In this document: positions 8,934 to 62,080 of the stretch, piece after piece
Position numbering within the stretch: the stretch's first letter is position 1
How the letters are laid out: each line of letters opens with the position of its first letter
Assembly: GCA_963724955.1 (NCBI GenBank)
Contig: CAVRWQ010000011.1
Location: forward strand, 314,357 to 378,356
DNA from: an uncultured Acidobacteriota bacterium
GTDB lineage: Bacteria > Acidobacteriota > Vicinamibacteria > Vicinamibacterales > SCN-69-37
DNA: 64,000 nucleotides
Reading direction: 5' to 3'
Made by a program: the position numbers and the translations under genes
Notes under the pieces: generated by a model
What the model saw: only the letters and a program-made list of their open reading frames with translations
Database searches by the model: none
What the model was told of the DNA's origin: nothing

Positions 8934-9011
8934 AGACATGAAGAAGATTGGCTAAGTTCGCTCGGTCAGAAAGAAGCCTAGAAGTTCTTCATGTTTCTCC
9001 ATGGTTCAGTC
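8915..9011. repeat. palindromic ~100-bp intergenic repeat, copy A ('HHEE element', MITE/REP-like)
   Basis: Left arm gactcaccatgaagaatgaagacatgaagaa, right arm ttcttcatgtttctccatggttcagtc. The left arm encodes the last lhr codons cac cat gaa gaa tga. Confidence 0.75.
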
Positions 9012-9033
9012 TTTTCGACAAGTGATTTTGGTA

Positions 9034-13344: not shown

Positions 13345-13393
13345 AGACACTGACCCTCGAGCGCTCTTCACACCAAGGACTTCAAGCGCCTTT
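13345..13393. repeat. possible degenerate half-copy of the HHEE element
   Basis: The reverse complement aaaggcgcttgaagtccttggtgtgaagagcgct resembles the copy B left arm atgaagtctgaaggcgtgaagcgct. Weak match. Confidence 0.3.
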
Positions 13394-15118: not shown

Positions 15119-15163
15119 AAAGGCAACTGCACAGTTTCGACGTTCGATTTTCGACGTTCGAAG

Positions 15164-16408
15164 TTACTCATATTCCTTCAGCAGCAGCGTCCCGTTGGTG
15201 CCGCCGAAGCCGAACGAGTTCGAGAGCGCGTAGTCGAATCTTCATCGGGCGCTTCGCGTTGGCGGCGTAGTCGAGATCGCAGGCCGGATCGGGATCGTCG
15301 AGATTGATCGTCGGCGGCGCGACCTGATGGCGCACCGCGAGCGCCGTGATGCCCGCTTCGAGCCCGCCGGCGGCGCCGAGCAGATGCCCGGTCATCGACT
15401 TCGTCGACGACATCACCAGCTTCTGCGCGTGCTCGCCGAACGTCGTCTTGACGGCCAGCGTCTCGGTCGGATCGTTGATCGGCGTCGACGTGCCGTGCGC
15501 GTTGATGTAGTCGATCTCGTCGGGCCGCACGCCGGCCTTGCGCAGCGCCATCCGCATCGATCGGACGGCGCCGTTGCGCGTCCTCGGGCTGCGCGGTCAG
15601 GTGAAAGGCGTCGCCGGACAGGCCGTAGCCGACGATCTCCGCGTAGATCGTGCGCGCCGCGCGCCTTCGCGATCTCGAGCTCCTCGAGAATCACGATGCC
15701 GGCGCCTTCGCCGATGACGAAGCCGTCGCGGTCCTTGTCGAACGGCCGGCTGGCGCGCGCCGGCTCGTCGTTGCGCGTGGACAGCGCGCGCATCGCGGCA
15801 AACCCGCCGACGCCCATCGGCGTGATCGACGCCTCCGATCCGCCGGCAATCATCACGTCGGCGTCGTCGCGCCGGATGATCTCGAACGCCTCGCCGATCG
15901 AGTGCGCCGACGCCGTGCACGCGGTGCACGTCGCGAGATTCGGGCCGCGGGCGCCGAAGCGAATCGACACCTGGCCGGCCGCGAGGTTGATGATGGACGC
16001 GGGAATGAAGAACGGGGAGATGCGGCGCGGCCCGCCGTTGAGCAGCTCGATGTGCTCGCGCTCGATCGTCGAGAACCCGCCGATGCCCGACGCGATGAAG
16101 ACGCCGACGCGGTCGGCGATCTCCGGCGTGACCTTCAGCTCCGCATCGTCCACCGCGAACTGCGACGCCGCGAGCGCGTACTGGATGAAGACGTCCATCT
16201 TCTTGACGTCCTTCTTCTCGACGTACTGCAGGGGATCGAAGCCCTTGACCTCGCCGGCGATGCGCGCCGCAAACGCGCGCGGCATCGAAGTGCGTGATCG
16301 GGCCGATGCCGCTCCGGCCGGCGCAGCAGCGCCGTCCCAGTTGGCCTCCGTGCCGATGCCGACCGACGACAGCAGGCCGACGCCGGTGACGACTACTCGC
16401 CTGTTCAA
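15164..16408 (-). CDS. fabF: 3-oxoacyl-ACP synthase II (multiple frame changes)
   Basis: [21 protein letters not shown]..., active-site region [21 protein letters not shown], ...[27 protein letters not shown]...[15 protein letters not shown]. The true C-terminus [18 protein letters not shown] is recovered by removing one base near 15235. Confidence 0.85.
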
Positions 16409-16662: not shown

Positions 16663-16687
16663 TCAGTCCTCCTGCGTGAATTCAGTT

Positions 16688-16714
16688 GGCGGCCCACAAC
16701 CCGGGCCGCCCTAC
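16688..16714 (-). repeat. REP-like element 1 (GTAG head + 8-bp GC stem), directly on the fabG stop
   Basis: Minus strand GTAG-GGCGGCCC-GGGTTGT-GGGCCGCC. The TAG within GTAG is the fabG stop codon. Confidence 0.7.
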
Positions 16715-17458
16715 AAGTACATCCCGCCGTTGACGGCGAGCACGTGCCCCGTAATATACGCTGCCTCGTCCGAGGCGAGGAACACGACGGCCGCGGCGAC
16801 GTCTTCGGGCGTGCCGAGGCGCTTCAGCGGAATCTTCGCCGCCCACTCCTCCTGGGCGCCGCCGGCAATCGCCCGCGTCATGTCCGTGTCGATCAGCCCG
16901 GGCGCGACCGCGTTGACCGTGATGTTGCGCGACGCGACCTCGAGCGCCAGCGCCTTCGTGAAGCCAATCAGCCCGGCCTTCGACGCCGCGTAGTTCGCCT
17001 GTCCGGCGTTGCCCGACTGGCCGACGACGGACGTGATGTTGATGATGCGGCCCGCGCGCTGCTTGATCATCGGCTTGAGCACGGCCTGCACGCACGGTGA
17101 ACGCCGCCGTCAGATTCGTCTGAATGCACCGCGTCCCAGTCGTCGCGCTTCATGCGCAGCATCAGCTGGTCGCGCGTGATGCCGGCGTTGTTCACGAGGA
17201 TGTCGATCCGGCCGTGACGCTCGAGCGATCGCGGCCACGGTCCGCGTCGATCGGCGCCGGCATCGGTGACGTCGAGCGCGACGGCCTCCGCCCGTCCGCC
17301 GCGCGCCGCGAATCTCGTCGACCGTCGCTCGCGCGTTCTCGCCGCGCGCCGCCGCCACCACCGTCGCGCCCGCCGCGGCCAGCGCCAGCGCGATCGCCCG
17401 GCCGATGCCGCGCGACGCGCCCGTGACCAGGGCCACACGGCCCGTCCAGGCTCCTCAT
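16711..17458 (-). CDS. fabG: 3-oxoacyl-ACP reductase (frame changes)
   Basis: [32 protein letters not shown] (recovered after removing one C near 17440), [29 protein letters not shown], and an intact C-terminal 126 aa with [32 protein letters not shown]...[12 protein letters not shown]. Confidence 0.85.
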
Positions 17459-18560
17459 CGCAACCTGCCTACTTCAGCACACGGCACGCGCGCACGCAAC
17501 TTGCTGCAGATCAAGAGCTCACCATGAGTCTGCACCCTCATGGCGAGCCTTCGACAACGCAGCGCCTCGGCCAGCCGCTCGGTCATCCGCTGCTCGGCGA
17601 GCCGCGCGGCCATCGCGATGCCGTTCTCGACCGCCTGGGCCGACGATCGCCCGTGGCCGACGAGCGCGAGGCCGTTGACGCCGAGCAGCGGCGCGCCGCC
17701 GGATTCCGCGTAGTCCACGCGCTGCTTGAACCGCGCGAACGCGCGGCGCGTGAGCAGCGCGCCGATCTGCGACGACCAGCTCGGCGCCCAGTTCCTCGCG
17801 CAGCATCTCCTGCGCCAGCCTCGACGAGCCCCTCGCCGACCTTCAGCGCGATGTTGCCCGTGAACCCGTCGCAGACGATGACGTCGGCGCGGCCGCGTGA
17901 AGAACTCGCGCGCCTCGAGGTTGCCGATGAAGTCGATCGGCGCGCGTCCGAGCAGCGCGTGCGCCTCGCGAATGAGGTCGTTGCCCTTGCCGGCTTCCTC
18001 GCCGATCGACAGCAGCCCGACCTTGGGGCGCTCGACGTCCGAGCGACACGCGCGCGTACGCCGCGCCCATGACGCCGAACTGGCACGAGATGCTCGGCGC
18101 GGCACTCGAGATTCGCGCCGGCGTCGAGCAGGATCGCGGCGCCCGCGCGCGTCGGCACGGTCACGGCCAGCGCCGGACGATCGACGCCCGGCAGCATGCC
18201 GAACGCCGCGTGCGCGGCAGAGAACGTCGCGCCGGTGTGCCCCGCGCTGAAGAGCGCCGCCGGCCTCGCCGCGCGCCACGAGATCGGCCGCGACGCGAAC
18301 CGACGACGCGCGGCTTGCGCCGGAGCGCCGCGAGCGGCGACTCGTCCATCGCCACCACGTCGGGCGCGTCGACGATCGTGAGCGCGCAGGCCGGCGCGCG
18401 CCGCCCTGCTGTCGCCATCTCGGCGCGAATGCAGCGCCGGCGGGCCCGACGAGCGTGACGCCGGCGATGCCGCGCGCGCGCCGCCTGCATCGCGCCGGCG
18501 ACGACCGCGCCGGGCGCCAGGTCGCCGCCCATCGCGTCAACGGCGACATGGTGATGGCAT
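17455..18560 (-). CDS. plsX: phosphate acyltransferase PlsX (frame changes; both ends approximate)
   Basis: [23 protein letters not shown], ...[103 protein letters not shown], found across three frames. An alternative stop lies at 17519. Confidence 0.8.
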
Positions 18561-20474: not shown

Positions 20475-21662
20475 CTATCGCAGGACTTCCGGCAGGAAGC
20501 TCGCGCCGTGCTCGAGCGGCTCGACGCCGAAGACCTCGGCGAGCGTCTGGCCGAGATCGGCGAACGTCGGCCGCGTGCCGAGATCGATGCCCGCGCGCAC
20601 GGACGCCCCGGCCAGCAGGACCGGCACGTGCTCGCGCGAGTGATCGGTCGACGGCGTCGTCGGATCGTTGCCGTGATCGGCCGTGACGACGAGCAGGTCG
20701 CTCCCGGCTCAGCGCCGGCAGGAGCGCGGCCAGCCGCGCGTCGAAGCGCTCGAGGTTCGCCGCGTAGCCCGGCGACGTCGTTGCGATGCCCGTAGACTGC
20801 GTGTCGAAGTCCACGAGGTTCGCGAACGATGAGACCCCGGCCGGGCCGCGAGACCTCGGTCGTCGAATCAGCATCCATGCCGTGATCGTCGGACGTCGTG
20901 TGAACCGCGCGCGTCAGACCCCGGCCCGCGAACAGATCCTCGATCTTGCCGATGCCGAACGACCGCGGTGCCCGGCGATCCTTCAGCCGATCGAGCAGCG
21001 TGGCGCCAGCGGCTCGAGCGCAAAGTCGCGACGATTCGCCGTTCGCGCGAAGCGCCCAGGCTCGCCGACGAACGGCCGCGCGATCACCCGGCCGACGCCC
21101 ATGCCCGCGCCCGACCAGATCGAAGGCGACGTCGCACAAGCCGGTACAGCTCGTCGATCGGAACGATCTGACTCGTGCGCGGCGATCTGGAACACGCGAG
21201 TCGGCCGAGGTGTAGACGATCGGCGCGCCGGTTCGCACGTGCTCGGCGCCCAGGGTCGTCGATGATGGCGGTGCCGGAGGCGACGACATTGCCGATCGTC
21301 CGGCGTCCGATGCGGCGCTCGAACTCGCGGATCAACGTCAGGCGGAAAACCGCTCTGGAAACGTCGGAAACGGCCGTTCGAGGACGACGCCCATCATTTC
21401 CCAGTGCCCGGTGACCGAGTCTTTGCCCGCCGACGTCTCCGCCATCCGCCCGAATGCGCCGATCGGCGACGCCGTCTCGCCCCCGATGTCCACGACGCGA
21501 CGCGAGGCCGAGCGACCGCAGCGTCGGCACGCGCAGCGGCACCGCCCGCGCGATATTGCCGACCGTGTTGCTGCCCTCGTCGCCGTAGGCCGCGGCATCG
21601 GGGAGCTCGCCCACGCCGACGGAGTCCATGACGATGAGAATGACGCGGGTGATGGCGTTCAC
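20475..21662 (-). CDS. deoB: phosphopentomutase (multiple frame changes)
   Basis: GTG at 21662, then [37 protein letters not shown]. Hand-translated C-terminus [38 protein letters not shown]. Confidence 0.8.
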
Positions 21663-22595
21663 GTCGTGAGAAATCCCTCGACGAGCGCGCGGGCCTCCGC
21701 CTGAATCGCCGGTGTCTCCCCCGCCCCGTGCGAGCCAGCGTACGTCAGCTTCTTTACGAAACCAGATCAACTGCCGTCGCGCGTAGCGCATGTTCTCGCG
21801 CACGATGAGATCGCGCGTCGCGTCCTCGTCACGGGCACCGGCGAGCAGCTCGATGACCTGCCGATAGACGAGCCCGCTGAATGCATGCGCGGATGCCGGC
21901 ACGCCCGCGGCGAGCAGTCGCTCGACTTCGTCGACGACTCCCCGCTCGATCTGCTGATCGACACGCCGGGCGACGCGCGGCCGCAGATCCTCGCGCGGCA
22001 GGTTGAGGCCGATGCGGCAGCACGCCGTAGCCCGGCGATCGGCCGACGCCGTGGCGTCGAAGTGCGACGTCAGCGGCGACCCGGTGAGCAGGTAGACCTC
22101 GAGCGCCCGCACGAGGCGCTTCCGATCGCGCGGCTGGATACGAAGCGCGGACTCCGGATCGACGCGCGAGAGCCAGCGGTGCAGCGATTCGACGCCGCGC
22201 CGGGCGGCGACGCGATCCAGACGATCGCGCAGCGGCTCGTCGCGCGCGGGACCGGGAAACAGGCCGCGCACGAGCGCCCGGTAGTAGAACCCGGTGCCGC
22301 CGGCGAGCACGGGCAGACGGCCTCGGGCCGTGATCTCGCGGACGGCCGTTCCCGCGTCGTGGCCAAAGCGTGCGGCGGTATAGGTCTCGGTCGGTTCGGC
22401 AACGTCGATCAGGTGATGCGGCACGCCGCCTCGCTCCTCGAGCGGCGGCTTGTCCGTGCCGATGTCGATGCCGCGATAGACGGCGGTCGAATCGCACGAG
22501 ACGATCTCTCCGTCGAACGCGCGGGCGATCGCGACGGCCAGCGCACTCTTGCCGGTCGCCGTCGGTCCGACGACGGCTATGAGTCGCCGCGTCAC
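21659..22595 (-). CDS. miaA: tRNA dimethylallyltransferase (one frame change near the 3' end)
   Basis: [24 protein letters not shown]...[19 protein letters not shown]...HHLIDV. Removing one G from the G-run near 21718 gives ..[23 protein letters not shown], overlapping the deoB GTG (GTGA). Confidence 0.88.
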
Positions 22596-22617
22596 GAGCC
22601 CGTCTCAGTCACAAAAA

Positions 22618-22720
22618 CCTCACATGAAGTCTGAAGGCGTGAAGCGCTTTTGGGGAAGGACCGCTTGTCAGAAAGCTCTTCCCCCAACAAGCCCTTCACG
22701 TCTTCACCCTTCATGGTGAG
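22618..22720. repeat. palindromic HHEE element, copy B
   Basis: cctcacatgaagtctgaaggcgtgaagcgcttttgggg ... cccccaacaagcccttcacgtcttcacccttcatggtgag. The arms are reverse-complementary. Located between the TonB-like stop and the miaA start. Confidence 0.75.
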
Positions 22721-22737
22721 TTTTTTCCGGCTCTTGG

Positions 22738-25468: not shown

Positions 25469-25573
25469 TGTGCCTCCTCGTGAACTATCGCCGATGGGGC
25501 TGGTGTTGGTGGCGGCCAAAGTGGACAGCGGCGTTCAATCCATGGCTCAGTCTTTGTCGACAAACGTTGCTGG

Positions 25574-25600
25574 CGCGGCCCACAGCCCGGACCGCGCTAC
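25574..25600 (-). repeat. REP-like element 2 (GTAG head + hairpin) on the ubiE stop
   Basis: Minus strand GTAG-CGCGGTCC-GGGCTGT-GGGCCGCG. It has the same 7-nt loop length and architecture as 16688-16714, and its TAG is the ubiE stop. Confidence 0.6.
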
Positions 25601-26316
25601 GACTTGCGCGCCAGATACAGATACACGATCCCGAGCGTGAGCGACTGGTACTCCACGCGCGTGAAGCCCGCCTGGCGGACGACGTCGGCGAAGGCCTCCG
25701 GGGTCGGGAACTTCTCGACCGAGGCCGGCAGGTAGGAATAGGCGTCGCCGTGTTTCGACACGGCGCGGCCCACTCGCGGCAGCACGTGCTTGAAGTACGC
25801 GCGATAGAGGGCCCCGATCCCGGGGACCCTCGGAAATCCAAACTCGAGAATCGCGAGGCGCCCGCCCGGTCTCAGCACGCGCGCGAACTCGCGACACGCC
25901 GCGTCAGGATCGACGACGTTGCGAATGCCGAAGCCAATCGTGACGGCATCAGCGCTGCCGTCGCCGAGCGGCAGGCGCGTCGCGTCGCCGCGCACCAGCC
26001 GGACGCGACCTCGCCAGGTCCGCGCGGACGACCTTCACGCGCGCGTGCTTCAGCATCTCGCCGGCGAAATCGAGGCCAATCACGTCGCGCGCCCGGCCGC
26101 CGGTCGCCGTCACCGCTTCAATCGCGAGATCGGCCGTGCCCGTGCAGACGTCCACGACGCGCTCCGTGCCGGTGAGCGCCAGCGACCGAACCGCGCGCCG
26201 CCGCCACCGGCGATCGAGGCCGGCGCTGAGCAGATGGTTGAGGGTGTCGTAGCGCCGCGCGATGTCGTCGAACATGCCGCGATTCGCGCAGGCGCTTTGT
26301 CGGTGGAAACCGTCAC
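25597..26316 (-). CDS. ubiE: demethylmenaquinone/ubiquinone C-methyltransferase (frame changes)
   Basis: GMFDDIARRYDTLNHLLSAGLDRRWRRRAV, VVDVCTGTADLAI (SAM motif), LVRGDATRLPLGDGSADAVTIGFGIRNVVD...VLRPGGRLAILEF...AYSYLPASVEKFPTPEAF. A GTG start at 26316 overlaps the ubiX stop (GTGA). Confidence 0.8.
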
Positions 26317-32989: not shown

Positions 32990-34442
32990 ACGGCTCTCCT
33001 TGATCTTCTCCCAGATCGCGGCGGCCTTCTGCGGCGGCCGCGTCGGTCATCACGAGCCGCTTCGGGCACTCGCGCGTGACGCCCTCGACGGCCACTTGCG
33101 CGTCGCGTCGATGCCCATCTTGCCGCCGAACGCCGGCATGATCGCGGCGTCGTCGAGGTCGTCCACCGGCCCTGTCGCGATCTCGATGTCGCGCGACGGA
33201 TCGACGTGCGTGCCGGCGATCCAGGCGACCTCGGCCTCGTTCTGCACGTCCACGTCCTTGTCCACGACGACGATGCACTTGGAGAACATCAGCTGGCCGA
33301 GGCCCCAGAACGCGCTCATGATCTTGCGCGCGTGGCCCGGATAGCGCTTGTCGATCGAGACGAGCACGAGGTTGTGAAAGATGCCGGCCGCCGGAAAGTG
33401 CATGTCCACGATCTCCGGCAGCGTCTTGCGGATGAGCGGCAGGAAGATCCGCTCGCTCGCCTTGCCGAGGTAGTAGTCCTCCATCGGCGGAATGCCGACG
33501 ACCGTCGTCACGTAGACCGGATTCTTGCGCATCGTCAGGCAGGTGCAGGTGGAACACCGGGAAGTCGTCGGCGAGCGAGTAGAGGCCGGTGTGATCGCCG
33601 AACGGGCCCTCGCGGCGCCGCTCGCCCGGCTCGACGTAGCCCTCGAGGACGATCTGCGCGCTGCGCCGGCACCTCGAGATCGACGGTCCGGCACTTGACG
33701 AGCTCGACGCGGCGCTTGCCGAGGACGCCGGCGAGCATCAGCTCGTCGAGCCCTTCGGGCATCGGCGCGGTCGCCGCAGTAGGTGCAGCACGGGATCGGC
33801 GCCGAGCGCGACGGCGACTTCGAGCCGCTTGCCCAGCCGCTCGGCGACGCGATGATGCTGCGCGCCGCCCTTGTGCCGCTGCCAGTGCATGCCGGTCGTG
33901 CGGCGGTCGTAGACCTGCATGCGGTACGTGCCGATGTTGCGCATGCCGGTTTCGGGATCGCGCGTGATGACGAGCGGCAGCGTGATGAACGGCCCGCCGT
34001 CTTCCGGCCAGGTCTTGAGCATCGGCAGCTCGTCGAGGCCGCCGTCGGTCTTGACGACTTCCTGGCACGGCGCGTCCTTGACGGTCTTCGGCATCAGATC
34101 GGTCAGCCGGCTCACGAGCGGCATCATCTTCAGCGCGTCCATGAAGCCGCGCGGCTGCGGCGGCGTCGTGAGCTCCTCGATCTCCTCCGCGAGATCGTCG
34201 AGCTTCTCGACGCCGAGCGCCAGGCAGATGCGCGACATCGATCCGAAGAGGTTCGCGGCGACCGGCATGTCGAACCCGGTCGGCCTCTCGAACAGCAGTC
34301 CCGGCCCGCCGCCCGGCGACTTGCAGACGCGATCGATGACCGCGGCCATCTCGAGGTCGGGGCTGACGGCTCGCTGATGCGCGCGAGATCCTTGCGGCGC
34401 TCGAGCTCGGCGATGAACGCGTGAGATGTCGGTGAACGTCAT
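32990..34442 (-). CDS. ubiD: UbiD-family decarboxylase (menaquinone-type; frame changes; 3' end approximate)
   Basis: MTFTDIS.., [139 protein letters not shown]. Confidence 0.8.
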
Positions 34443-35407
34443 CAGCTCGCCCCTGCCTCGATCGCCTCGGCGACCCGCGTCGCGAGCGCCAGCGCGCGCC
34501 GGCCGTCGGCGCCGGTGACGCGCGGCGGCCGGCCGGTCGCGGATCGCGCTCGACGAAATCCTCGAGCTCGCGCCTGAGCGGCTCTTCACGCGGCACCTCG
34601 ACTGCGCCCGCCCTCGATCGCCGGCCGCTCGCCCGGCCGCCGGCGCAGCCGCCAGACTTCGAGCTCCTGCGCGGCGTAGTCCACCGACACGTACATGTCC
34701 GGCTGAAAGAACCGCACCTTGCGCACCTTGTCGCGGCTGATGCGGCTCGCGGTGATGTTCGCGATGCAGCCCGACGCGAACTTCACCCGCGCGTTGGCGA
34801 TGTCGATCTTCGGCGTCAGCACCGGCACGCCGATCGCGTCGACGGTCACGACCTCGCGTCCCGATCGACGGCCAGAATGATATCGAGATCGTGAATCATC
34901 ACGTCGAAGATGACGTCGATGTCGAGGCTGCGCTCGGGAAAGCCGCTGAGCCGGTGCACTTCGATGAAGCGCGGCGTCCGCAGCGACCGGCAGCGCCGCC
35001 GCGATCGGCGGGATTGAAGCGCTCGGTGTGCCCGACGGCCAGCATCGCGCCGTGGCGGCTGGCCAGCGCGATGCAGCTCGTCGGCCTCCGCGAGCGACGC
35101 GGCCATCGGCTTTTCGACGAGCACGTGCGACGCCGCGCTCGAGGAACGGCCGCGCGACCGCCAGATGGCTCGCGGTCGGCACGGCGACGACGACGGCGTC
35201 GACCGTGCCGAGCAGCGCGCGGTCGTCCGTCAGCGCCTCGCCGCGGTGCCGGCCACGGCCGCGTGCGCGCGTTCTTCGACCAGGTCAACCGCCGCCGACG
35301 AGCTCGACGCCCGGCATCGCTGCCGAGCAAGCCGCGCATGGTGCCGGCCGAGATGGCCGACGCCGATGACGCCGATCGCGGAGTGGCGCGCGAGCAGCGT
35401 CGCTCAT
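34443..35407 (-). CDS. Gfo/Idh/MocA-family oxidoreductase (frame changes)
   Basis: [13 protein letters not shown]-type N-terminus after correction, [79 protein letters not shown], and C-terminal [12 protein letters not shown]. Confidence 0.7.
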
Positions 35408-41857: not shown

Positions 41858-41914
41858 GGCGGCCCACGATTGGCGGCTCAAAGTTCGAGCCGCTCTACGT
41901 ACGAGCCGCCCTAC
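41858..41914 (-). repeat. composite REP-like element (two GTAG heads, tandem 16-nt duplication) between clpC and bamA
   Basis: Plus strand ggcggccc-acgat-tggcggctc-aaagttc-gagccgct-ctac-gta-cgagccgcc-ctac. It shares ggcggccc and the gccgccctac tail with the other copies. Confidence 0.6.
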
Positions 41915-41920
41915 GTGGTC

Positions 41921-44368
41921 TTAGACGGTGACTGCCAGCCGACGGCCGTCCTCGTCCTGCCCGGCCGCGCGCCAGGCCAGGGTGCCGTGGTCCAGGTAGA
42001 TCTCGATGACGCCCGTCCGCAACTGCCCGCGGATGAGCTCTTCGGAGAGCGGGATCCTCGATGTAGCGCTGGATGGCCCGGCGCAGCGGCCGCGCGCCGT
42101 AGGACCGGTCGCGGCAGGTCGCGTCGATGATCCAGTCGACCACCTCGGGCAGCACCTCGAGCTGCAGCTGCCGATCGGCCAGGTGCTGGTTCAGGTTGTC
42201 GATGAGCAGCGCGCGTGATCCGCCGCAGGTCGTCGTCCGACAGCGGGTCGAAGACGATGATCTCGTCGATGCGGTTGATGAACTCGGGGTTGAAGGTCTT
42301 CTTGACCTCGCCGAGCACCATGTCGGTGACCGACTTCTGGATCTCGCGCGCGTCGGGCGTCTGGAAGCCCATCGACGCCTTCTTCTGGATGAAGCGCGCG
42401 CCGATGTTCGACGTCATGATGAGGATCGTGTTCTTGAAGTTGACCCGGTTGCCGAGGCCGTCGGTCAGGTGGCCGTCCTCGAAGACCTGCAGCAGGATGT
42501 TGAACAGATCGGGATGCGCCTTCTCGATCTCGTCGAGCAGCACGACCGAGTACGGGTTGCGCTTGATCTTCTCGGTGAGCTGGCCGCCCTCTTCGTGGCC
42601 CGACGTAGCCGGGAGGCGAGCCGATGAGCTTCGAGACCGAGTGCTTCTCCATGTACTCGGACATGTCGAAGCGGATGAGCGCGTGGTCGCTGCCGAAGAG
42701 GAAGTTCGCGAGCGCGCGCGCGAGCTCGGTCTTGCCGACGCCGGTCGGCCCGAGGAAGATGAAGCTGCCGACCGGCCGCGTCGGGTTCTTGAGCCCGGCG
42801 CGCGACCGGCGGATCGCGCGCGACAGCGCGGAGATCGCCTTCTCCTGGCTGATGACGCGCCGGTGCAGCTCCTCTTCCATCCGGAGGAGCTTGTTGCCCT
42901 CGTCCTCGTTGACCGAGGTCAGCGGCACGCCGGTCCACTTGGAGACGACTTCGTCGATCTCGTGCTTGCCGATGGCGATGCGCGTGGAGCCCGACTTCAC
43001 GTCGATCCGCTCGCGGACCATCAACTGGTCGCGCGACTGCGACGGCATCTCCTGGTCGCGATAGAGCCAGGCCTTGTCGCCAGCCCGCTCGGACGCGGGA
43101 TCCAGCTGCTCGACGGCGACGCGGATGCTGCGGCCGACTTCGCCCATCTCGGCGTTCAGCTCGGCCTCGCGCAGCTTGGCGCGCGCGCCGGCCTCGTCGA
43201 TGAGGTCGATCGCCTTGTCGGGCAGGAACCGATCGGTGATGTAGCGGCTCGACTGATACACCGCCGCCTCGATCGCCTCGTTCGTGTATTCGACGTGGTG
43301 GAACGACTCGTACCGGTCCTTGACGCCCATCAGGACCTGCACGGTCTCCTTCTCGGTCGGCGGATCGACCTTGATGGCCTGGAACCGGCGCTCGAGCGAG
43401 CGGTCCTTCTCGATGTACTTGCGATACTCGGCCGGCGTCGTCGCGCCGATGCAGCGGATCTCGCCGCGCGAGAGCGCCGGCTTGAGGATGTTGGCGGCGT
43501 CGAGCGAGCCTTCGGCCGACCCGGCGCCCACGAGCGTGTGCAGCTCGTCGATGAACACGATGATGTTCGGGTTCTCGGTGAGCTCCTTCATGATCGCCTT
43601 GAGGCGCTCTTCGAACTGGCCGCGGTACTTCGTGCCCGCGACGATCAGCGAGATGTCCAGCGCCAGGATGCGCTTGTCGGCCAGGAAGTGCGGCACGTCG
43701 CCGCAGACGATCTTCTGCGCGAGGCCTTCGACGATCGCCGTCTTGCCGACGCCAGGCTCGCCGATGAGCACGGCGTTGTTCTTCGTGCGGCGGCACAGGA
43801 CCTGCTGCACGCGCTCGACTTCGATCCCGCGGCCGACGAGCGGGTCGAGCTGATTCTTCATCGCCGCGTCCGTCAGGTCGCGGCTGAACTCGGCGAGCAG
43901 CGGCGTCTCCTTCGGACGCGCCGGCGCGGTCTTCTCGTTGAGCAGCTGCACGATGTCTTCGCGCACGCTCGCGAGGCGCATGCCCTTCTCGTACAGGATC
44001 GACGCGGCGACCGACCGCTCCTCGCGCAGAATGCCGAGCAGCAGGTGCTCGGTGCCGATGTAGGTGTGCAGCAGCCGATCGGCTTCTTCCGCCGCGAACG
44101 GCAGCACGCGCTTGGTCTCGCCGCTGAATGGAATCTCGACCGACGTCGAGACCTTCTCGCGGAAGACCGTGCGGCCTTCGATCTCCTTGCGGATGCTGTC
44201 GAGGGAAAGGTGCGATCGCGCAAAAATCCGGCTGGTGAGGCCCTTGCCTTCGCGAATCAGTCCGAGCAGCAGATGCTCGGTTTCGATAGAGGTACTGCCG
44301 AGCTGCGTCGCTTCATAGCGCGCGAAGAACAGCACGCGACGCGCTCGTTCCGTGTAGCGTTCAAACAT
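41921..44368 (-). CDS. clpC: ATP-dependent Clp protease ATP-binding subunit ClpC/ClpA-type AAA+ (frame changes only in the last ~650 nt)
   Basis: [40 protein letters not shown] (Clp_N repeats), Walker [30 protein letters not shown], second Walker [62 protein letters not shown]. Confidence 0.88.
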
Positions 44369-44413
44369 CCAGGGGTCCGGGGAGAATGGCGCACATCGGC
44401 GATCCCTACTTTC

Positions 44414-44462
44414 ATTATATACGGCATGGGCGCGAATAACTTTGGCGACCGAATTGGTCGCC
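44414..44462 (-). promoter_or_regulatory. possible terminator hairpin after the kinase gene plus a TATAAT box upstream of clpC
   Basis: Minus strand GGCGACC-aattc-GGTCGCC (44462-44444), then aaagttattcgcgcccatgccgta-TATAAT (44419-44414), ~45 nt before the clpC ATG. No good -35 element. Confidence 0.25.
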
Positions 44463-44471
44463 GGCGCGCCG

Positions 44472-47120
44472 TCACGTGGTCGGCATGAGGATCTGTGCAA
44501 TCCTGGTCAGCAAATCGTCGGCCGAAAACGGTTTCTGAAGGAAGTGCCCGGCCTTCGGCAGCGTACCATGCTGTGCCAGCACGCCGTCCGCGTAGCCCGA
44601 GATGTACAGGACCGGCACGCCGGGACAGACCATCTCGAACGCGCGTGCCAGCTCCGGACCGGTGCCGCCTGGCATGACGACGTCGGTGATGACGAGGTGA
44701 ATCGGCTCATTGTGCTCGCGCGCGCGCGCGAGGGCGGCTGTCTGATGCTCGGCGGCAATCACGCGGTACCCGTGCCGCTCGAGGACTTGAGCCAGAAACA
44801 CTCGTACCGCCTCGTCGTCCTCGACGAGGAGCAGTGTCTCTTTGCCGCGCGGTAGGTCAGATGCACCAGGCCGCTTCCCGGCAATCGCCTCGGCGCGCAT
44901 TCGCGCCTCTGGAAAGTACAGGCGGAAAGTGGCGCCCTGACCCGGCTCGCTCGCGACCGTCACGATGCCGTCCATCTGCTTGACAATGCCGTACACGGTG
45001 GCCAGCCCCAGGCCGGTGCCCCGCCCCACCTCTTTCGTCGTGAAGAAGGGCTCGAAGATCCGGGCCTTGGTCGCCTCGTCCATGCCCACGCCGCTGTCGC
45101 TGACTTCGAGCAGGACGAACTGACCGGCCGCGCCGTCCGGGCTGACTTCCTTCGCGCCGAGCCACACCATGGCCGTCCTGATCGACAGCCGGCCGCCCTT
45201 GGTCATGGCGTCGCGCGCGTTGACGGCCAGGTTGAGGACGATCTGCTCAATCTGCCCCCGGTCGCCGAGGATCGCCGCGACGTCCGGGTCCAGCGCGCTG
45301 AGGATCTCGATGTGCTCGCCAATCACCCGGCGGAGCATCGGCACGAGGTCCCCAATCAGGCGGGAGAGGTGAATCGCCGTCGGCTGCAGCATCTGGCGCC
45401 GGCTGAACGCGAGCAGTTGACGTGTGAGACCCGCCGCGCGCTCAGCCGCTTTCTGGATTTCGACGACCTGCAGCCGCCGCGGGTCGCGTCCGCCGAAGTC
45501 CTGCGCCAGCCAGTCGGCATAGCCGAGAATCGCGGTGAGCAGGTTGTTGAAGTCGTGCGCGATGCCGCCGGCGAGCTGGCCGATGGCCTCCATCTTCTGG
45601 CTCTGACGCAGGCGATCCTCGAGGTCCCGCCGTTCCGTCACGTCGCGCGTGACGGCGACGAAGCCGTCGAGATCGTCGACGTCGCTCTGAAGCCGGCGAA
45701 TGACCGTCGCGCCGACGAACTTCTCGCCGTCGCGCTTGCGGCAGGGACCGTCCCGCTCGGCGTGACCATGCTGCCGCGCGTCGGCGAGCAGCCCCAGCCA
45801 GGCCTCCTCGGTGAGGTTGTAGAGCGCCGCGGCCGGCTGGTCCAGCATCTCGGCCGCGCGGTAGCCGAAGACGTGCTCGGCGCCGGGCTGCCACGACACC
45901 ACGCGGCCGCGATGATCGATCACGAACATCGCGTAGTCTGTGATGCTGTCGAGCATGAGGCCGACGCGCGACTCGACTTCGCGCAGACGCCGGTCGGCCG
46001 CCTTGCGCTCGCGCTCGCGACGCTCGGTCACCAGATGCGCGTGGTCGAGTGACATGGCGGCGTACCGGCCGAGCTGCCCGAGCAGTTGCAGGTCGTCTTC
46101 GGGAAAGAGCGAGCCGCGCCGTTGCACGACAAGGACGACGCCCCACGTGTGCGCCTCGGTCGTGATCGGCGCGACGAGCACCTGCGTGCCGAACGCCGCG
46201 AGCCTCGCGCCGAGATCGCGATCGCAGTCGTTCGTCGAGCCCGTGACCGGCTGCCGGCTCTCGCACGCGCGCGCGACGAGCGCGGCGGCCGGCGCGAGCC
46301 TGAGGCCGCGCAGCGCCGGCGACGTCGTGGCGGTCACGACGAGGTCCTCGCCGGCTCGCGCGCTGCGCAGAGCGACCAGGCTGACGGCGTTGCCGACACT
46401 GCTCGCCGACGCCTGATTCAAGTCGTCGGCCGCGCTCGCACCCCGATCCTCGGCGTCACGCTCCGCCGTGCGGCTGAGGTACTTCGCCTGCTCGGCGCGC
46501 TGCCAGGCCGAGCGCAGGCGCCGTGGCGTGCTGAAGGCGAGGAAGTAGCACGCCAGGGCGGTCGCGGCGAGCAGCTGGTTCACCAGCCCGCCGACGCGGC
46601 CCATCGCCGCCGACCAGGGCCCAAGCGTGCTGAGCGTGTACGTGGCGGCGAAGAGCCACGTGCCGCCGGCCGCAAACACGAGGCGTTTGGCGGTCACGCC
46701 GGAGGTCCGCCCCGCTTCGCGCGTGAACGCGACCGCGGTGTACGTCTCGAGCGCGGCGCAGAGCGCCGAGACCACCGACGTCCAGATGAACACCCGGTTC
46801 GACGGCGCGTTCAGCGTCGCGACGAGACTGGCGGCGACGAGCGCGAGCGCGCCGTGCAGGAGCGGCGACGGCACGTCGCGAAAGTGACGCACGAGACGAA
46901 GCAGCAGATACGGCTGCGCCGCGAAGAGCGCCACGCGGGCGGCCTCGAGGACGCCAGCACGGCTCGGAATCACGCGCACGATCGCGAGTGACGCGACGAG
47001 AAACAGGATGTCGAGCCGGTGCGTCTCCCGACGCCGCCAGACGGCGTTGAGGGCACTCAGTGCCGTCAGGACAATGAGCGCGGCACCCGCGTAGGACGCG
47101 AACGCGATGATCCCAGCCAT
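44472..47120 (-). CDS. hybrid sensor histidine kinase/response regulator (multi-TM sensor, GAF, PAS, HisKA, HATPase, REC)
   Basis: Intact 882-aa ORF. ~6 N-terminal hydrophobic helices. PAS region (YAMFVIDHRGRVVSWQPGAEHVFGY), H-box GGIAHDFNNLLTAILGY, G-boxes DSGVGMD / GRGTGLGLATVYGIV, receiver LLLVEDDEAVR...LVITDVVMPG. Confidence 0.9.
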   Translation of the reverse strand: MAGIIAFASYAGAALIVLTALSALNAVWRRRETHRLDILFLVASLAIVRVIPSRAGVLEAARVALFAAQPYLLLRLVRHFRDVPSPLLHGALALVAASLVATLNAPSNRVFIWTSVVSALCAALETYTAVAFTREAGRTSGVTAKRLVFAAGGTWLFAATYTLSTLGPWSAAMGRVGGLVNQLLAATALACYFLAFSTPRRLRSAWQRAEQAKYLSRTAERDAEDRGASAADDLNQASASSVGNAVSLVALRSARAGEDLVVTATTSPALRGLRLAPAAALVARACESRQPVTGSTNDCDRDLGARLAAFGTQVLVAPITTEAHTWGVVLVVQRRGSLFPEDDLQLLGQLGRYAAMSLDHAHLVTERRERERKAADRRLREVESRVGLMLDSITDYAMFVIDHRGRVVSWQPGAEHVFGYRAAEMLDQPAAALYNLTEEAWLGLLADARQHGHAERDGPCRKRDGEKFVGATVIRRLQSDVDDLDGFVAVTRDVTERRDLEDRLRQSQKMEAIGQLAGGIAHDFNNLLTAILGYADWLAQDFGGRDPRRLQVVEIQKAAERAAGLTRQLLAFSRRQMLQPTAIHLSRLIGDLVPMLRRVIGEHIEILSALDPDVAAILGDRGQIEQIVLNLAVNARDAMTKGGRLSIRTAMVWLGAKEVSPDGAAGQFVLLEVSDSGVGMDEATKARIFEPFFTTKEVGRGTGLGLATVYGIVKQMDGIVTVASEPGQGATFRLYFPEARMRAEAIAGKRPGASDLPRGKETLLLVEDDEAVRVFLAQVLERHGYRVIAAEHQTAALARAREHNEPIHLVITDVVMPGGTGPELARAFEMVCPGVPVLYISGYADGVLAQHGTLPKAGHFLQKPFSADDLLTRIAQILMPTT

Positions 47121-50500: not shown

Positions 50501-50527
50501 GGGCAGCCGGCGATTGCCTGTTCACAA

Positions 50528-50632
50528 AGTTCACCATGAAGGCTGAAGACGTGAAGAGGTCTTTGGAAAGATCGCTTGTCGAAAGAGCCTTTCGATCAAA
50601 GGCTTCACCTCTTCATTCTTCATGGTGAAGCT
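50528..50632. repeat. palindromic HHEE element, copy C
   Basis: Left arm agttcaccatgaaggctgaagacgtgaagaggtctttggaaagatcg, right arm cgatcaaaggcttcacctcttcattcttcatggtgaagct. The right arm encodes the last lysS codons (cac cat gaa gaa tga on the minus strand). Confidence 0.8.
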
Positions 50633-52151
50633 CTGTTTGGGAAGGCTTGGGGGCCTTGTGGGGCCGCATGAGCGGGAACAGGATGACGTCGCGAATGGAG
50701 GGGCTGTTGGTGAGCAGCATCACGAGCCGGTCGATGCCGATGCCCTCGCCGCCGGTGGGCGGCAGGCCGTACTCGAGCGCGCGAATGTAGTCCTCGTCCA
50801 TCTGGTGCGCCTCGACGTTGCCGGCGGCGCGCTCGGCAATCTGCGCCTCGAAGCGGCGCCGCTGCTCGTCCGGATCGTTCAGCTCGCTGAAGCCGTTGGC
50901 GAGCTCGAACCCGCCGGCGTACAGCTCGAAGCGCTCGACCGTGTCGGGGTCGTCCGGCCGCTGTTTGGACAGCGGCGAGACCTCGGTCGGAAAGTCATAC
51001 ACGAAGGTCGGCTGAACGAGCCGATCCTCCCACAGCGCCTCGAACACGTCCGTCGCAATGCGCCCGGCGCCATCTGACGCGGCAACGTCGAGGCCAAGCG
51101 CGCTCGCGACCGCCGCCGCCTGCGCGCGATCGCGGAGCATGGCCTCGGTCACGTCCCGGCCGAGCCGCCCGCTCGCTGCCTCCGCCGCAGCCGCCCGCAG
51201 CGACAGCCGCCGGAACGGCGGCGCGAACGACAGCACGTGCTCGCCGAACGGGGCGTCGAGGCTGCCGAGCACGTCGCGCGCGATGTCCGTCAGCATGTCC
51301 TCGGTGAGCCGCATGAGGTGCTGGTAGTCCACGTAGGCCTCGTAGAACTCGAGCATCGTGAATTCGGGGTTGTGCTGGGTCGAGATGCCCTCATTCCTGA
51401 AGTTACGATTGATCTCGTAGACTCGTTCGAACCCGCCGACCGTCAGCCGCTTGAGATACAACTCCGGCGCGATCCGGAGGAACAGATCGATGTCGAGCGC
51501 GTTGTGGTGCGTGACGAACGGCCGCGCCAGCGCACCGCCGGCAATCGGCTGCATCATCGGCGTCTCGACTTCGAGAAACCCGCGCGCCTCGAGAAACCGC
51601 CGGATGCCGGCGATCACTCTCGCGCGCGTCTCGAACACCCGGCGCGACTCCGGGTTGACCACGAGATCGAGATAGCGCTGACGGTAGCGCGTCTCGACGT
51701 CGGTGAGGCCGTGCCACTTCTCCGGCATCGGCAGCAGACACTTGACGAGAAAATGCAGCCGCGACGCCCAGACGGTCAGCTCGTTCGTCTTCGTCCTGAA
51801 CAACCGGCCTTCGACGCCGATGTGGTCGCCAAAGTCGAGCAGCTTGAAGACCTGAAAATCCAGGACGGGCAGCGCGTCCTCCCGGACGTAGACCTGCACG
51901 CGACGGAGCCCGTCGGACAGCACCAGGAAGTTCGCCTTGCCGAACGTCCGCACGCCGACGATCCGTCCCGCGAGACGCACGTGCGGCCGCTCCGCTTCGA
52001 GCGCCTCACCCGTCCTGGCGCCGTGCGCCTCGACGGCTGCCCCGATCGTCGCGGTCCGATCGAAACGGCTGGGATATCCCGCCACACCCAGGCGCCCGAG
52101 CTCCTCGAGCTTCGCCCGGCGTTGCGCTGCCTGTTCGACTTCGTTGGACAT
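50613..52151 (-). CDS. lysS: lysine--tRNA ligase (class II)
   Basis: Intact 512 aa. OB-fold N-domain and class II motifs ([37 protein letters not shown]). Confidence 0.95.
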
Positions 52152-52170
52152 GCTTTACTTGATCCTTGTC

Positions 52171-52218
52171 GGCGCTTGGCTCTTGGCGCTTGGCTCCTGG
52201 CGCTTGGCTCTCGGCGCG
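52171..52218. repeat. tandem 14-nt repeat (3.4 copies) in the nusB-lysS spacer
   Basis: ggcgcttggctctt / ggcgcttggctcct / ggcgcttggctctc / ggcgcg, read directly. Confidence 0.8.
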
Positions 52219-52248
52219 TCAGGCGCGAGTTTTTCGAGCGCCGAGCGC

Positions 52249-53920: not shown

Positions 53921-53955
53921 ATCCGGTTGATTATACGTCGCGGTCCGCCAAGAGC

Positions 53956-54002
53956 ATTCACCACGAAGACACGAAGGCCACGAAGAGTTCTTGGGAAGAG
54001 CC
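53956..54002. repeat. half-copy (left arm only) of the HHEE element
   Basis: ttcaccacgaagacacgaaggccacgaagagttcttgggaagagcc compared with ttcaccatgaaggctgaagacgtgaagaggtctttggaaag. Confidence 0.5.
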
Positions 54003-54401
54003 TCAGGCTTTTGGACGAGCGCGGCGGCGCCACAGGCGGGCGATCGCAAAGACCATCAGCGATCCGGCGATGGCGCCGAGCGCGTCCGCGATCCAGTCGT
54101 CCACCGTCGCCGATCGACCCGTCACGAAGCGCTGATGGAACTCGTCGCTGGCGCCGTAGAGCACGGCGATGACGATCGCGATCACCGCCGCCCGCGGCCG
54201 GACGCCACGCCAGGTCGCCGACGCGAGTGCCCGCACGAGCAGAATGGCCAGCAGCGCATAGCCGATGAAGTGGCCCTGGTGGTCGGTGAATCCCCCGGGC
54301 ACTTCCTTGAGGTTCTCCTGGCCCGAGAAGATGAAAATGGCGATCATCTGGGCGAGCGGCGGGCCCCAGACCCAGACGAAGCGAAGCAGGCCGGACGTCA
54401 C
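54003..54401 (-). CDS. VanZ-family membrane protein
   Basis: 132 aa, GTG start. AIFIFSGQ...HFIGYALLAILL...LYGASDEFHQRFVTGRSATVDDWIADALGA. Confidence 0.7.
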   Translation of the reverse strand: MTSGLLRFVWVWGPPLAQMIAIFIFSGQENLKEVPGGFTDHQGHFIGYALLAILLVRALASATWRGVRPRAAVIAIVIAVLYGASDEFHQRFVTGRSATVDDWIADALGAIAGSLMVFAIARLWRRRARPKA

Positions 54402-56088: not shown

Positions 56089-56222
56089 GCTGATGCTTGC
56101 ATTTGGGATTTGCGATTTTGCGATTTGCGATTTAGAGCATCATGAAAGGCCGTAAATCCAAAAATCTCTCAATCTCTCAAGCTCTAAATCTCTAAATTTC
56201 TAAATTTCTAAATCGCAAAATC
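56089..56222. repeat. AT-rich (~35% GC) intergenic region of inverted arrays of 7-8-nt units
   Basis: Left array atttggg|atttgcg|attttgcg|atttgcg|atttagag. Right array aaatcca|aaaatctc|tcaatctc|tcaagctc|taaatctc|taaatttc|taaatttc|taaatcgc|aaaatctc. The right array is the reverse complement of the left-type units. Confidence 0.8.
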
Positions 56223-58034: not shown

Positions 58035-58099
58035 AGGAATCGGTGCTGGGTGCGGCGTGCTGGGTGCAGAGTGCGGTGGGTGCGGGGGTGCGTGCGACG

Positions 58100-61427: not shown

Positions 61428-61481
61428 CAGGGGAAAATATCACGCGGCGAGTTGGCGGGCCCAAGCCCGGCCCGCCCTGCG

Positions 61482-61961
61482 CTAAAACGCGAGGTTCACG
61501 CCGGCATAGAAGCGCTGGGGCGTCTTGTAGAGCGGACTGCCCCGAAGCGAATACACGCGGTAGTCGACCCTCAGCCGGAGCGGACCTGCCAGGGTGATCT
61601 TGACCCCGCCGCCGATATTCGTGCCGAAGCTCGTCGCGGTGTCGCCGAGGATATGCTCCCGGTAATAGCCGCCGCCCACGGTCCCGTACAACTGCACGCC
61701 GGACGTCGGTGTCAGCAGCAGTGCGTTGAACATCCCGGTCGTGAGCCCCGGTGCGGCCTTGAGCTCGTCCTCGCGCACCGTGCTGTAGTCGAACTCGAAG
61801 CCGACGATCAGCAGGTTGATGCCGAGCGCGAACCCCCTCGCCGGCCGGTTCTCGGGCGTCGGAGAAAACCCGACGAAGAACGTCAGGTCGGCCGAGGCGC
61901 GCGAGGGCACGCCGACCAGCGCCGTCAGCGCGAGCAGCGAGACGATGAGCAGGCGTTTCAT
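61482..61961 (-). CDS. small outer-membrane beta-barrel protein (OmpA-like 8-strand type)
   Basis: Signal MKRLLIVSLLALTALVGVPSRASA, alternating beta pattern, and the terminal ...RFYAGVNLAF aromatic residue. Confidence 0.7.
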   Translation of the reverse strand: MKRLLIVSLLALTALVGVPSRASADLTFFVGFSPTPENRPARGFALGINLLIVGFEFDYSTVREDELKAAPGLTTGMFNALLLTPTSGVQLYGTVGGGYYREHILGDTATSFGTNIGGGVKITLAGPLRLRVDYRVYSLRGSPLYKTPQRFYAGVNLAF

Positions 61962-62002
61962 GTTCCTCCTATCGGTCCGTCTGCCCGCGGACTGCACGTT
62001 TT

Positions 62003-62029
62003 GGCGGCCCGAAACCCGGGCCGCCCTAC
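62003..62029 (-). repeat. REP-like element 3 (GTAG head + 8-bp GC stem)
   Basis: Minus strand GTAG-GGCGGCCC-GGGTTTC-GGGCCGCC-AA. 27 of 29 nt are identical to the copy at 16688-16714. Confidence 0.7.
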
Positions 62030-62080
62030 GAGTAGGGGCGCGGCGCGCGGCTGGTGTATGCGCGGAGCGCCGCCGGCGCC

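Follow-up and report, generated by a model that had tools for sequence, protein, structure and literature searches.

A dispersed palindromic repeat, probably an old nonautonomous mobile element, at gene boundaries of a Vicinamibacterales genome

INTRODUCTION

Bacteria of the order Vicinamibacterales abound in soil and are seldom cultured, and to our knowledge almost nothing is known about their noncoding DNA. Here we analyze a family of palindromic intergenic repeats in a 64,000-nucleotide (nt) stretch of contig CAVRWQ010000011.1 (assembly GCA_963724955.1), which derives from an uncultured bacterium of this order; the whole of this stretch is called the window below. Copies of the repeat stand at the ends of genes that include lysS, the genes for the Lhr helicase, VanZ, and PlsX, and a TonB gene upstream of miaA (Table 1). 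An earlier note on the window had described three full copies, a left-arm-only copy, and a weak half-copy, and had likened their behavior to that of small mobile elements. We examined the copies, their folding, their gene context, and the orthologous sites in relatives, which are referred to by locus handles (L018 and the like).

RESULTS

Copies of the repeat in the window

The three full copies (c1 to c3) and the left-arm-only copy (c4) lie where they had been reported. A degenerate pattern of the arm, CAYGAAGNNNGAAGRCRTGAAG, matches the window five times, against 0.12 ± 0.33 matches expected, and none of 100 shuffled windows reaches five. An nhmmer profile of the arms retrieves exactly seven arms (E values of 1e-12 to 1e-6, the next best being 1.8), namely, the six arms of the three full copies and the single arm of c4. 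By contrast, the weak half-copy proposed at positions 13345 to 13393 was detected neither by nhmmer nor by the covariance model, which was run on the window with its filters off, and it is not counted here.

The analysis adds one copy to the earlier description. This fifth, "mini" copy is probably an internally deleted derivative, as judged from its sequence, although the evidence for it is weaker than for the other copies. Only the outer ends of the element remain in it, with a 9-nt loop between them; the words and the center are gone. Its head, CAAGAGCTCACCATGA, is identical at 16 of 16 positions to the left end of the copy found in the relative L018, and its tail carries the matching terminus, CTTGTC..GCT..CCATGA.

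The GC content of the copies ranges from 0.42 to 0.52, compared to 0.68 for the window, in line with the observation that they are more A/T rich than their surroundings. Pairwise identity between copies reaches only 58 to 72%, which indicates that they are old.

TABLE 1 Copies of the repeat, associated features, and other tandem-word arrays (positions refer to the window unless L279 is named)
Feature	Position	Strand	Gene context	Evidence or sequence
Full copy c1	8903–9027	+	Between the convergent 3' ends of the Lhr helicase open reading frame (+; Pfam WH3/WH4_Lhr) and a VWA-like gene (−; Pfam VWA)	Covariance model, 89.1 bits; fold z, −4.2 and −5.3
Full copy c2	22606–22733	+	Between the stop of a TonB-C gene (22738, −; Pfam TonB_2) and the GTG start of miaA (22595, −; Pfam IPPT)	Covariance model, 114.6 bits; fold z, −7.1 and −6.4; arms of 43 nt
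Full copy c3	50516–50646	+	Between the lysS stop (−) and the start of a LolE/MacB-type permease gene (−; ATG at 50500)	Covariance model, 116.7 bits; fold, −56 and −57.8 kcal/mol; z, −5.5 and −7.0
Arms of c3	50530–50556 and 50603–50629			89% complementary
Last codons and stop of lysS	50613–50627	−	Within the right arm of c3	…LHHEE*
Single-arm copy c4	53947–54003	+	Between the VanZ stop (54003–54005, −) and the enoyl-CoA hydratase start (53920, −)	nhmmer arm profile, E = 8e-8; words CACGAAG for CATGAAG; no partner arm
Probable internally deleted (mini) copy	17504–17564	.	Directly after the PlsX domain; the PlsX open reading frame reads through it	Covariance model, 19 bits, E = 0.0016
Word hairpin	52152–52248		NusB-to-lysS spacer	Heptamers GGCGCTT/GGCTCTT, complement CCAAGAG/CCAAGCG
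Word array	56089–56222		Between PfkB and the next gene	TTTGCGAT facing AAATCTCT words; A/T-rich inverted repeat
Word array	58035–58099			GGTGCNG, eight times
Word array	15135–15161			TTCGAYK, four times
Word hairpin	L279, 4891–5028			CTTCGAA
Word hairpin	L279, 5968–6076			GTGCTNG/CNAGCAC
Word hairpin	L279, 9904–10000			CGAGTGC
Word hairpin	L279, 2950–2995			TGACGTGTC

Anatomy and folding

Each full copy, about 125 to 131 nt long, consists of two inverted units of about 60 nt placed around a short asymmetric loop. A unit is made of an A-rich outer flank (…CTTGTC-A-AAGAGC), the head TCACC, three tandem words of 7 to 8 nt that end in TGAAG, and the segment TTTGGGG-AAGAGC. The arm common to the three full copies and to c4 reads TCACC-ATGAAG-nn-TGAAG-nnn-TGAAG, its TGAAG words being spaced 7 and 8 nt apart. 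The homology between copies exceeds these repeated words, since it takes in the head and the flank, the segment TTTGG..AAGAGC, and the oriented loop CGCTTGTC.GAAAG. The loop (CGCTTGTCrGAAAG) is both conserved and asymmetric, so that the element has an orientation; the strands given in Table 1 for the copies are those of the loop, which points the same way (plus strand) in all three full copies.

The reverse-complementary arms noted earlier are borne out, but their extent had been underestimated. Pairing continues about 15 to 20 nt farther out, through the A-rich left flank (…CTTGTC-A-AAGAGC, followed by TCACC…) and the T-rich right flank, and it also reaches farther in than the proposed center of 17 to 26 nt, through TTTGGGG-AAGAGC. 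Arm complementarity amounts to 77 to 89% over 27 to 43 nt and extends to the outer flanks. One word has been lost from the right arm of c1, and the number of words per arm differs among the family members (two, three, or four); for the arms of c1 and c4, TRF reports three copies of a 7- to 8-nt unit.

Every copy folds into a single long imperfect hairpin on both strands, with z scores of −4.2 to −7.1 for the full copies of the window and of −3.7 to −9.4 for those of related genomes, the energies being equal on the two strands. In an alignment of five copies, 87.9% of the cells pair. Double-sided changes occur in 9 of 36 pairs in this alignment, whereas shuffled controls give 4.0 ± 1.5 (none of 500 reaches 9) and slid controls give 1 to 5, which suggests, as far as five related sequences can indicate it, that the hairpin has been maintained. 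When only the central segment is considered, a weak test of compensatory change, the within-copy arm identity is 0.53 to 0.67, compared to a between-copy mean of 0.48.

The assembly itself calls for some care. Many genes of the window look split by frameshifts or fused (33050 to 34589, 41911 to 44500, 4589 to 8933, 21084 to 22595, 13394 to 14704, and 15413 to 16408): UbiD, ClpB, and Lhr each occupy two open reading frames (ORFs), ETF-alpha, KAS, and other domains are matched partially, and miaA encodes 503 amino acids (aa), compared to about 308 in homologues. These features suggest indel errors of a long-read assembly. Since the assembly seems prone to indels, single-base differences among copies may be errors, and the left arm of c2, CTCACATGAAG, is one C short, possibly for this reason. 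The repeat family is nevertheless not an artifact, because L018 and L019 stem from independent short-read assemblies.

Gene ends within the element

ORF and Pfam contexts place every copy at a gene boundary, as the earlier note had stated. Since the end of lysS lies in the right arm of c3, the element supplies the lysS stop codon. Most of 119 lysS homologues stop 0 to 5 residues after LMRP(R), unlike the lysS of the window. Likewise, the Lhr ORF terminates with THHEE* inside c1, and the VanZ of L018 ends with SSP* within its own copy; the Pfam FA_synthesis match in PlsX stops at residue 334 of a 374-aa ORF. Whichever strand is read, two of the three frames of an arm contain TGA; a gene that runs into a copy therefore stops within the element and gains a new short tail.

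Homologues of lysS with the endings …RHHE* and …PHHD* were considered as further carriers and rejected, the lysS-lolE gaps being only 5 and 3 nt there. Among the homologues P0005, P0024, P0039, P0062, P0080, P0089, and P0093, several have repetitive C-terminal tails (…DRSIDRSIDRSIDPQ, …QSNDQSSDQ, and …GQSIDGSVDR). From their sequences, these tails would seem to arise where the gene runs on into other repeats or palindromes located downstream of lysS in other lineages.

The position of ATG and TGA in the arms also allows the element to be read as a small protein-coding gene, in which the ATG of CACC-ATG-AAG would open an ORF of about 30 aa closed by the TGA of the opposite arm. ORFs of 30 to 31 codons with the pattern MKxE[DE]VK…S.L[HQ].SW* do occur in c3 (both strands) and in c2 (plus strand), but any palindrome with such arms would have the same ATG…TGA symmetry. 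Across the copies, the ORFs measure 4, 7, 9, 10, 16, 25, 30, 30, 40, 44, and >58 codons, with early stops and frame changes in c1, L018, L012, and L066. No Shine-Dalgarno-like sequence is present, and the peptides have no database protein with which they share as many as three 5-residue words. Since neither the length nor the frame of the ORF is conserved across copies, we rejected the peptide gene as a very improbable explanation.

An imperfect palindrome of about 100 to 130 bp immediately after ORFs is also reminiscent of attC, the recombination site at the 3' end of integron gene cassettes. However, the neighbors are housekeeping genes in conserved synteny (lysS, miaA, nusB, ribH, lolE, and Lhr) rather than cassettes, and the ends of the element, by reading of the sequence, lack RYYYAAC/GTTRRRY boxes. 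In a Pfam scan of about 50 ORFs of the window, we found no integrase domain and, in agreement with the earlier note, no transposase domain. We discarded attC identity on the basis of gene context, and its probability appears close to nil.

Filled and empty sites in relatives

By their homologues, lysS and miaA assign the window to the Vicinamibacterales (Acidobacteriota) or their vicinity. Relatives were compared by means of syntenic DNA, with lysS 77 to 90% identical to that of the window. At the lysS-to-lolE junction, the genes overlap or are separated by 3 to 38 nt in L018, L019, L140, L141, L142, L277, L278, and L279, whereas in the window the gap is 112 nt and is filled by c3. Similarly, the TonB-to-miaA gap measures 5 nt in L263, L264, and the P0125 contig, compared to 142 nt, filled by c2, in the window. 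At the VanZ-to-enoyl-CoA hydratase (ECH) junction, L140, L142, and L279 have a spacer of 9 to 10 nt, with VanZ ending …CGCGACGTATAA within a conserved block. This third site is occupied in L018, by a full copy (799 to 912), and in the window, by the single-arm c4.

The occupied VanZ site is informative as to how it was filled. In the window, the ancestral VanZ terminus, CGCGACGTATAA, persists downstream of the insert; in both L018 and the window, the insert is followed downstream by the conserved block CCGCGACGTATAATCAGCCGG.TATG, and VanZ now ends differently. Such an arrangement is the mark of an element that inserted into the 3' end of VanZ before the lineages of L018 and the window genome parted. 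The copy c3, being absent from L018 and L019, is younger than the split between the window genome and L018.

The check for insertion polymorphism in related genomes that had been proposed earlier therefore gives a positive answer at lysS-lolE, TonB-miaA, and VanZ-ECH, which are filled in the window and empty in relatives. As shown by this comparison of orthologous positions, the element behaves as inserted DNA.

In five genomes, the VanZ-to-ECH region also retains the block CGCGACGTATAATCAGCCGG(A/T)TATG (window, 53921 to 53945, minus strand; L018, about 932 to 957; L140, L142, and L279). The TATAAT that it contains ends 8 to 9 nt before the ECH ATG, which suggests a predicted promoter for a leaderless mRNA overlapping the ancestral VanZ stop.

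Distribution outside the window

The 64-kb window holds three full copies, one half copy, and one mini copy, and 5.7 kb of L018 (an approximately 90% relative) hold one more, which was outside the model and is found with an E value of 2e-22. About 85 kb from six other relatives contain no copies. In L279 (12.8 kb; lysS 84% identical), there is only a divergent variant of about 195 nt at 2991 to 3186 (covariance model, 33 bits), a hairpin with four (A/G)TGAAG words per arm located between MeaB/glyoxalase and metallo-beta-lactamase genes. The source annotation labels this hairpin as a 67-aa gene.

A scan of a genome collection with ACCATGAAGNNTGAAGNNNTGAAG returned 17 loci, among which only L012 is a true relative. 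This Acidobacteriota metagenome-assembled genome (59% GC) carries one full copy. It also has shorter hairpins, each arm of which holds two words (GAAACCGTGAAGCAATGAAG … CTTCACTGCTTCACGGTGAA); these lie together, in tandem and inverted order, at 2190 to 2310, recalling clusters of the REP/BIME (repetitive extragenic palindrome/bacterial interspersed mosaic element) kind. The same scan of metagenomes gave L066 as the only useful locus among the matches listed; this metagenome contig (47% GC) carries a version of the element of about 150 nt. The metagenome matches listed are mostly an unrelated gut (Faecalibacterium/phage-like) coding sequence, ATGAAGCGTGAAGACGTGAAG, and the pattern of the arm further hits an unrelated, conserved gut gene (Faecalibacterium/phage-like) at its 5' end, which begins ATGAAGCGTGAAGACGTGAAGAA (L001, L008, L010, L014, L016, and most of L020 to L139 and L143 to L262). 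The right arms and the centers of the L012 and L066 copies were not fixed by the search pattern.

No family member appeared among the matches listed from the scans of viral contigs, which that gut coding match filled as well, or in a blastn search of plasmids. One viral-classed contig, L268 (IMGVR_UViG_3300037424_002025; 62% GC), has at 5423 to 5552 a word hairpin made of (GGGTTGAAG) repeated seven times and then an inverted arm of CTTCA words, preceded by (GCCAGA)n. It uses TGAAG words and is at most a possible relative of the family.

Tandem-word hairpins in the surrounding spacers

The spacers of the window and of its relatives contain many other hairpins whose arms are built of different tandem words of 7 to 8 nt (Table 1). 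Some of the word hairpins of L279 occupy spacers that are syntenic with differently worded arrays of the window. The long array of the NusB-to-lysS spacer comprises 7 words in the window, 12 in L018 (2604 to 2731), and 9 in L019 (88 to 187); because L018 and L019 encode an identical lysS protein, it is a heptamer variable-number tandem repeat that changes by slippage within a population.

This abundance raises the possibility that the element is itself a local simple-sequence hairpin, its arms produced by in-place slippage of 7- to 8-nt words and the likeness of its copies due to convergence or gene conversion. Heptamer repeats are known to be overrepresented in bacterial intergenic DNA, where they are sometimes inverted and vary between close relatives (PMC4692102; PMC4679880). 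Besides the variable NusB-to-lysS array, the number of words varies within the family as well, and the three words of an arm have changed in concert, since c4 has CACGAAG in all of them while its L018 orthologue has CATGAAG. However, about 60 nt of nonrepetitive sequence per arm and the asymmetric loop are common to unlinked loci and to different genomes, and this shared frame rules out independent local expansion as the source of the family. Moreover, relatives show that entire inserts of about 130 nt stand at junctions that are otherwise 0 to 10 nt long. We regard a purely local origin, against which the five loci of the window already speak, as quite unlikely, and the loss of a word in c1, the occurrence of two, three, or four words, and the concerted change in c4 fit local processes acting after insertion.

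Two other palindromic sequences of the window are distinct from the family. One, unrelated, at 2974 to 3100, has arms of 39 nt that are 95% complementary (AAAGGGGACGGGTCTCCCCCTGTGGAAAAGTCCCGCAAC) and a third, direct partial copy at 2974 to 3007. The other is a second, REP-like family, a short G+C-rich stem-loop, TTGGCGGCCCgaaaCCCGGGCCGCCCTAC, present at gene ends in four copies (16686 to 16719, 25572 to 25605, 61452 to 61485, and 62001 to 62034).

DISCUSSION

Palindromic repeats located between genes are of several kinds in bacteria, and we compared the element with each of them. The window, L018, L012, and L066 gave no match at or above the gathering threshold of any Rfam 15 family; at permissive E values, only generic hairpins of eukaryotic microRNA precursors appeared, far below threshold. 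In the literature searched, no repeats of this kind were described for Acidobacteria or Vicinamibacteria. The family is apparently undescribed, while the type of element, a small palindromic piece of noncoding mobile DNA, is already familiar.

The class of bacterial miniature transposable elements with inverted repeats (MITEs) has been defined and exemplified by elements of the ERIC, Correia (CREE), and RUP type (PMC3184786). Like them, the element measures on the order of 100 to 160 bp, is noncoding, has long inverted arms that form one hairpin, lies at gene ends in transcription units, shows presence/absence polymorphism, and has decayed and internally deleted derivatives. The properties of a small noncoding multicopy unit of less than about 400 bp are seen in its five loci in 64 kb, together with L018, L012, and L066, and in the lack of conservation of its internal ORFs; terminal inverted repeats and filled and empty orthologous sites, three in number, are present as well. 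Unlike ERIC and Correia, which duplicate TA, it has no demonstrable target-site duplication, and in contrast to all three types, no cognate insertion sequence or transposase is known for it, its arms are composed of three tandem words of 7 to 8 nt, and the palindrome spans the entire unit rather than the termini alone. It has no sequence similarity to these families.

A second point of comparison is provided by REPINs, which are inverted doublets of REPs mobilized by REP-associated tyrosine transposases (RAYTs), leave singlet remnants, and cause no evident target duplication (PMC3116915). The REP unit is an imperfect palindrome of 20 to 60 nt, commonly with a GTAG or CGTC head (PMC3733652, PMC3116915). 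As in REPINs, two inverted units and a spacer form a hairpin in single-stranded DNA or mRNA, singlets occur as remnants (c4 is a singlet where L018 has a doublet), deletion derivatives and clusters exist (such as the L012 cluster at 2190 to 2310), and old, diverged copies persist in the lineage. Nevertheless, a single arm of the element (TCACCATGAAGnnTGAAGnnnTGAAG…) is not self-complementary and has no GTAG or CGTC head, and we found no RAYT or TIRYT gene in the window and none that could be linked to the repeat. The TIRYT-associated motif GGGGWSAS (PMC3733652) was compared by eye with the TTTGGGGAAG center and set aside, as it does not fit. Hence, of the proposed MITE- or REP-like character, the dispersed palindromic repeat and its behavior as an insertion hold, whereas strict membership in either class is not established, given that there is no convincing target-site duplication and that the arm lacks REP features.

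The heptamer repeats described as cyanobacterial STRR, Xanthomonas GGGAATC, and Beggiatoaceae/cyanobacterial TAACTGA share with the element the tandem words of 7 to 8 nt and the restriction to spacers, and they too sometimes form inverted arrays that fold into stem-loops and vary in word number and sequence at the same spacer (PMC4692102, PMC4679880). They differ from it in that the element has a fixed frame, with a head, three words, a center, and an oriented loop, at unlinked loci and in different genomes. Since this architecture recurs in such a way, we consider the element to be dispersed rather than a local microsatellite.

The position of the hairpins at gene ends could also point to a function for the host. 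According to such an explanation, the element would be an RNA or DNA hairpin selected by the host, serving as a bidirectional terminator, an RNase III/E site, or an mRNA stabilizer that punctuates operons, and it would have spread because it is useful. All copies are at gene ends, c1 being between convergent genes, and A-rich and T-rich runs flank the hairpin, so that in c1 and c2 a U-rich stretch comes after it whichever strand is transcribed. Furthermore, canonical terminators are not enriched in the window (8 versus 9.2 expected; 6 versus 8.7), where another device could serve, and pairing is retained through some double changes. On the other hand, the orientation of the loop relative to transcription varies, the L018 copy being opposite to c2 and c3, and the equal folding energies of the two strands do not designate one transcribed strand. 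The stems are A/U rich with internal mismatches, the U tracts are weak or absent in c3 and L018, and most relatives have no element at all at the same junctions. We therefore consider host selection an unlikely primary explanation, while noting that it overlaps with mobility, as the two are not mutually exclusive.

Concerning the terminator function in particular, a terminator scan reports nothing at any copy, a canonical intrinsic terminator having a short G+C-rich stem with a U tract directly after it; the stems are long, mismatched, and 42 to 52% GC, with U runs of 4 to 6 beside c1 and c2 only. Dispersed terminator-like hairpin repeats exist in other bacteria, TRIT of mycobacteria being one of them. 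Like such repeats, among them the pneumococcal SPRITE (listed in PMC3184786), the element forms hairpins downstream of many genes and also between convergent genes. Unlike SPRITE and TRIT, its hairpin is much longer, A/U rich, and mismatched, and its U tracts are weak or absent.

Taken together, these comparisons lead us to favor, as probable, the reading of the element as an old, nonautonomous, formerly or still mobile palindromic repeat of about 125 to 131 bp that resembles MITEs and REPINs. The dispersed homologous family, its insertion at three sites, its decay products, the remodeling of upstream gene ends, and the separation of genes are demonstrated at the level of sequence. The history that they give is as follows. 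Copies have inserted at gene boundaries in this Vicinamibacterales lineage, parting genes that abut or overlap in relatives, and an upstream gene running into a copy ends there with a new short tail. Once inserted, copies have decayed in several ways: c4 lost an arm, c1 lost a word, and the mini copy probably underwent a deletion of its interior.

We infer that this nonautonomous element spread by means of a trans-acting enzyme encoded elsewhere in the genome, possibly through a route that recognizes single-strand hairpins (HUH/RAYT-like) rather than through a DDE transposase. We lean toward such a REPIN-like route because the palindrome takes in the entire unit and shows some compensatory change, because singlets and deletion derivatives occur as they do among REPINs (PMC3116915), and because no target duplication is evident. 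In addition, Acidobacteria encode their own group of RAYT-like transposases, the TIRYTs, with associated repeats (PMC3733652). The element may further be cotranscribed with its neighbors, in which case its imperfect RNA hairpin of about 50 bp could act as a terminator, a processing site, or a stability element that uncouples the flanking genes.

Several points weigh against mobility as the explanation. The genomes with filled and empty sites are too diverged, with lysS identities of 77 to 90%, for the exact junctions to be fixed. A clear target-site duplication was not found: the flanking direct repeats are only 4 to 5 nt long (GACAA, ACAAG, and CTGTT), of which about one per copy is expected by chance, and they are inconsistent across copies and missing at c2 and L012. 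Only six full copies in all were available, and because L012 and L066 were found with the left-arm pattern, the conservation of the left arm is in part due to ascertainment. Among the copies seen, there is neither an autonomous partner nor a pair of nearly identical copies, and their identities of only 58 to 72% mean that there is no sign of recent transposition. The covariation comes from five sequences, and related sequences can exceed a shuffle control without any structure. Finally, the genome is rich in word hairpins that vary by slippage, and neither the word number nor the concerted change requires transposition.

The family is best seen against this background of word hairpins rather than as an isolated MITE. 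It is even conceivable, though we consider it a long shot, that the family and the other spacer hairpins (those with GGCGCTT/GGCTCTT, GGTGCNG, CTTCGAA, TTTGCGAT, and CGAGTGC words) are products of one unrecognized process, by which word-repeat hairpins would be built, copied, and homogenized at gene boundaries in the Vicinamibacterales. Such a process might consist of hairpin-templated copying without a classical transposase or, alternatively, might involve a word-specific nucleic acid-binding system that punctuates operons. If it exists, orthologous spacers would be reoccupied by different word families over short evolutionary distances.

In kind, the element is a small palindromic repeat like many that are known; what is unusual is that its arms are made of tandem words and that it occurs in a lineage rich in word-built hairpins. 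A repeat family with both filled and empty sites offers a marker for strain typing and a handle on the genome dynamics of the Vicinamibacterales. Moreover, the element rewrites the C termini of essential genes (lysS, Lhr, VanZ, and PlsX), and annotators should allow for such tails. Operon predictions should likewise take account of the gene pairs that it parts and that overlap in relatives (lysS-lolE, TonB-miaA, and VanZ-ECH). Lastly, its tie to tandem-word hairpins could open the way to studying how heptamer repeats originate and whether they affect expression.

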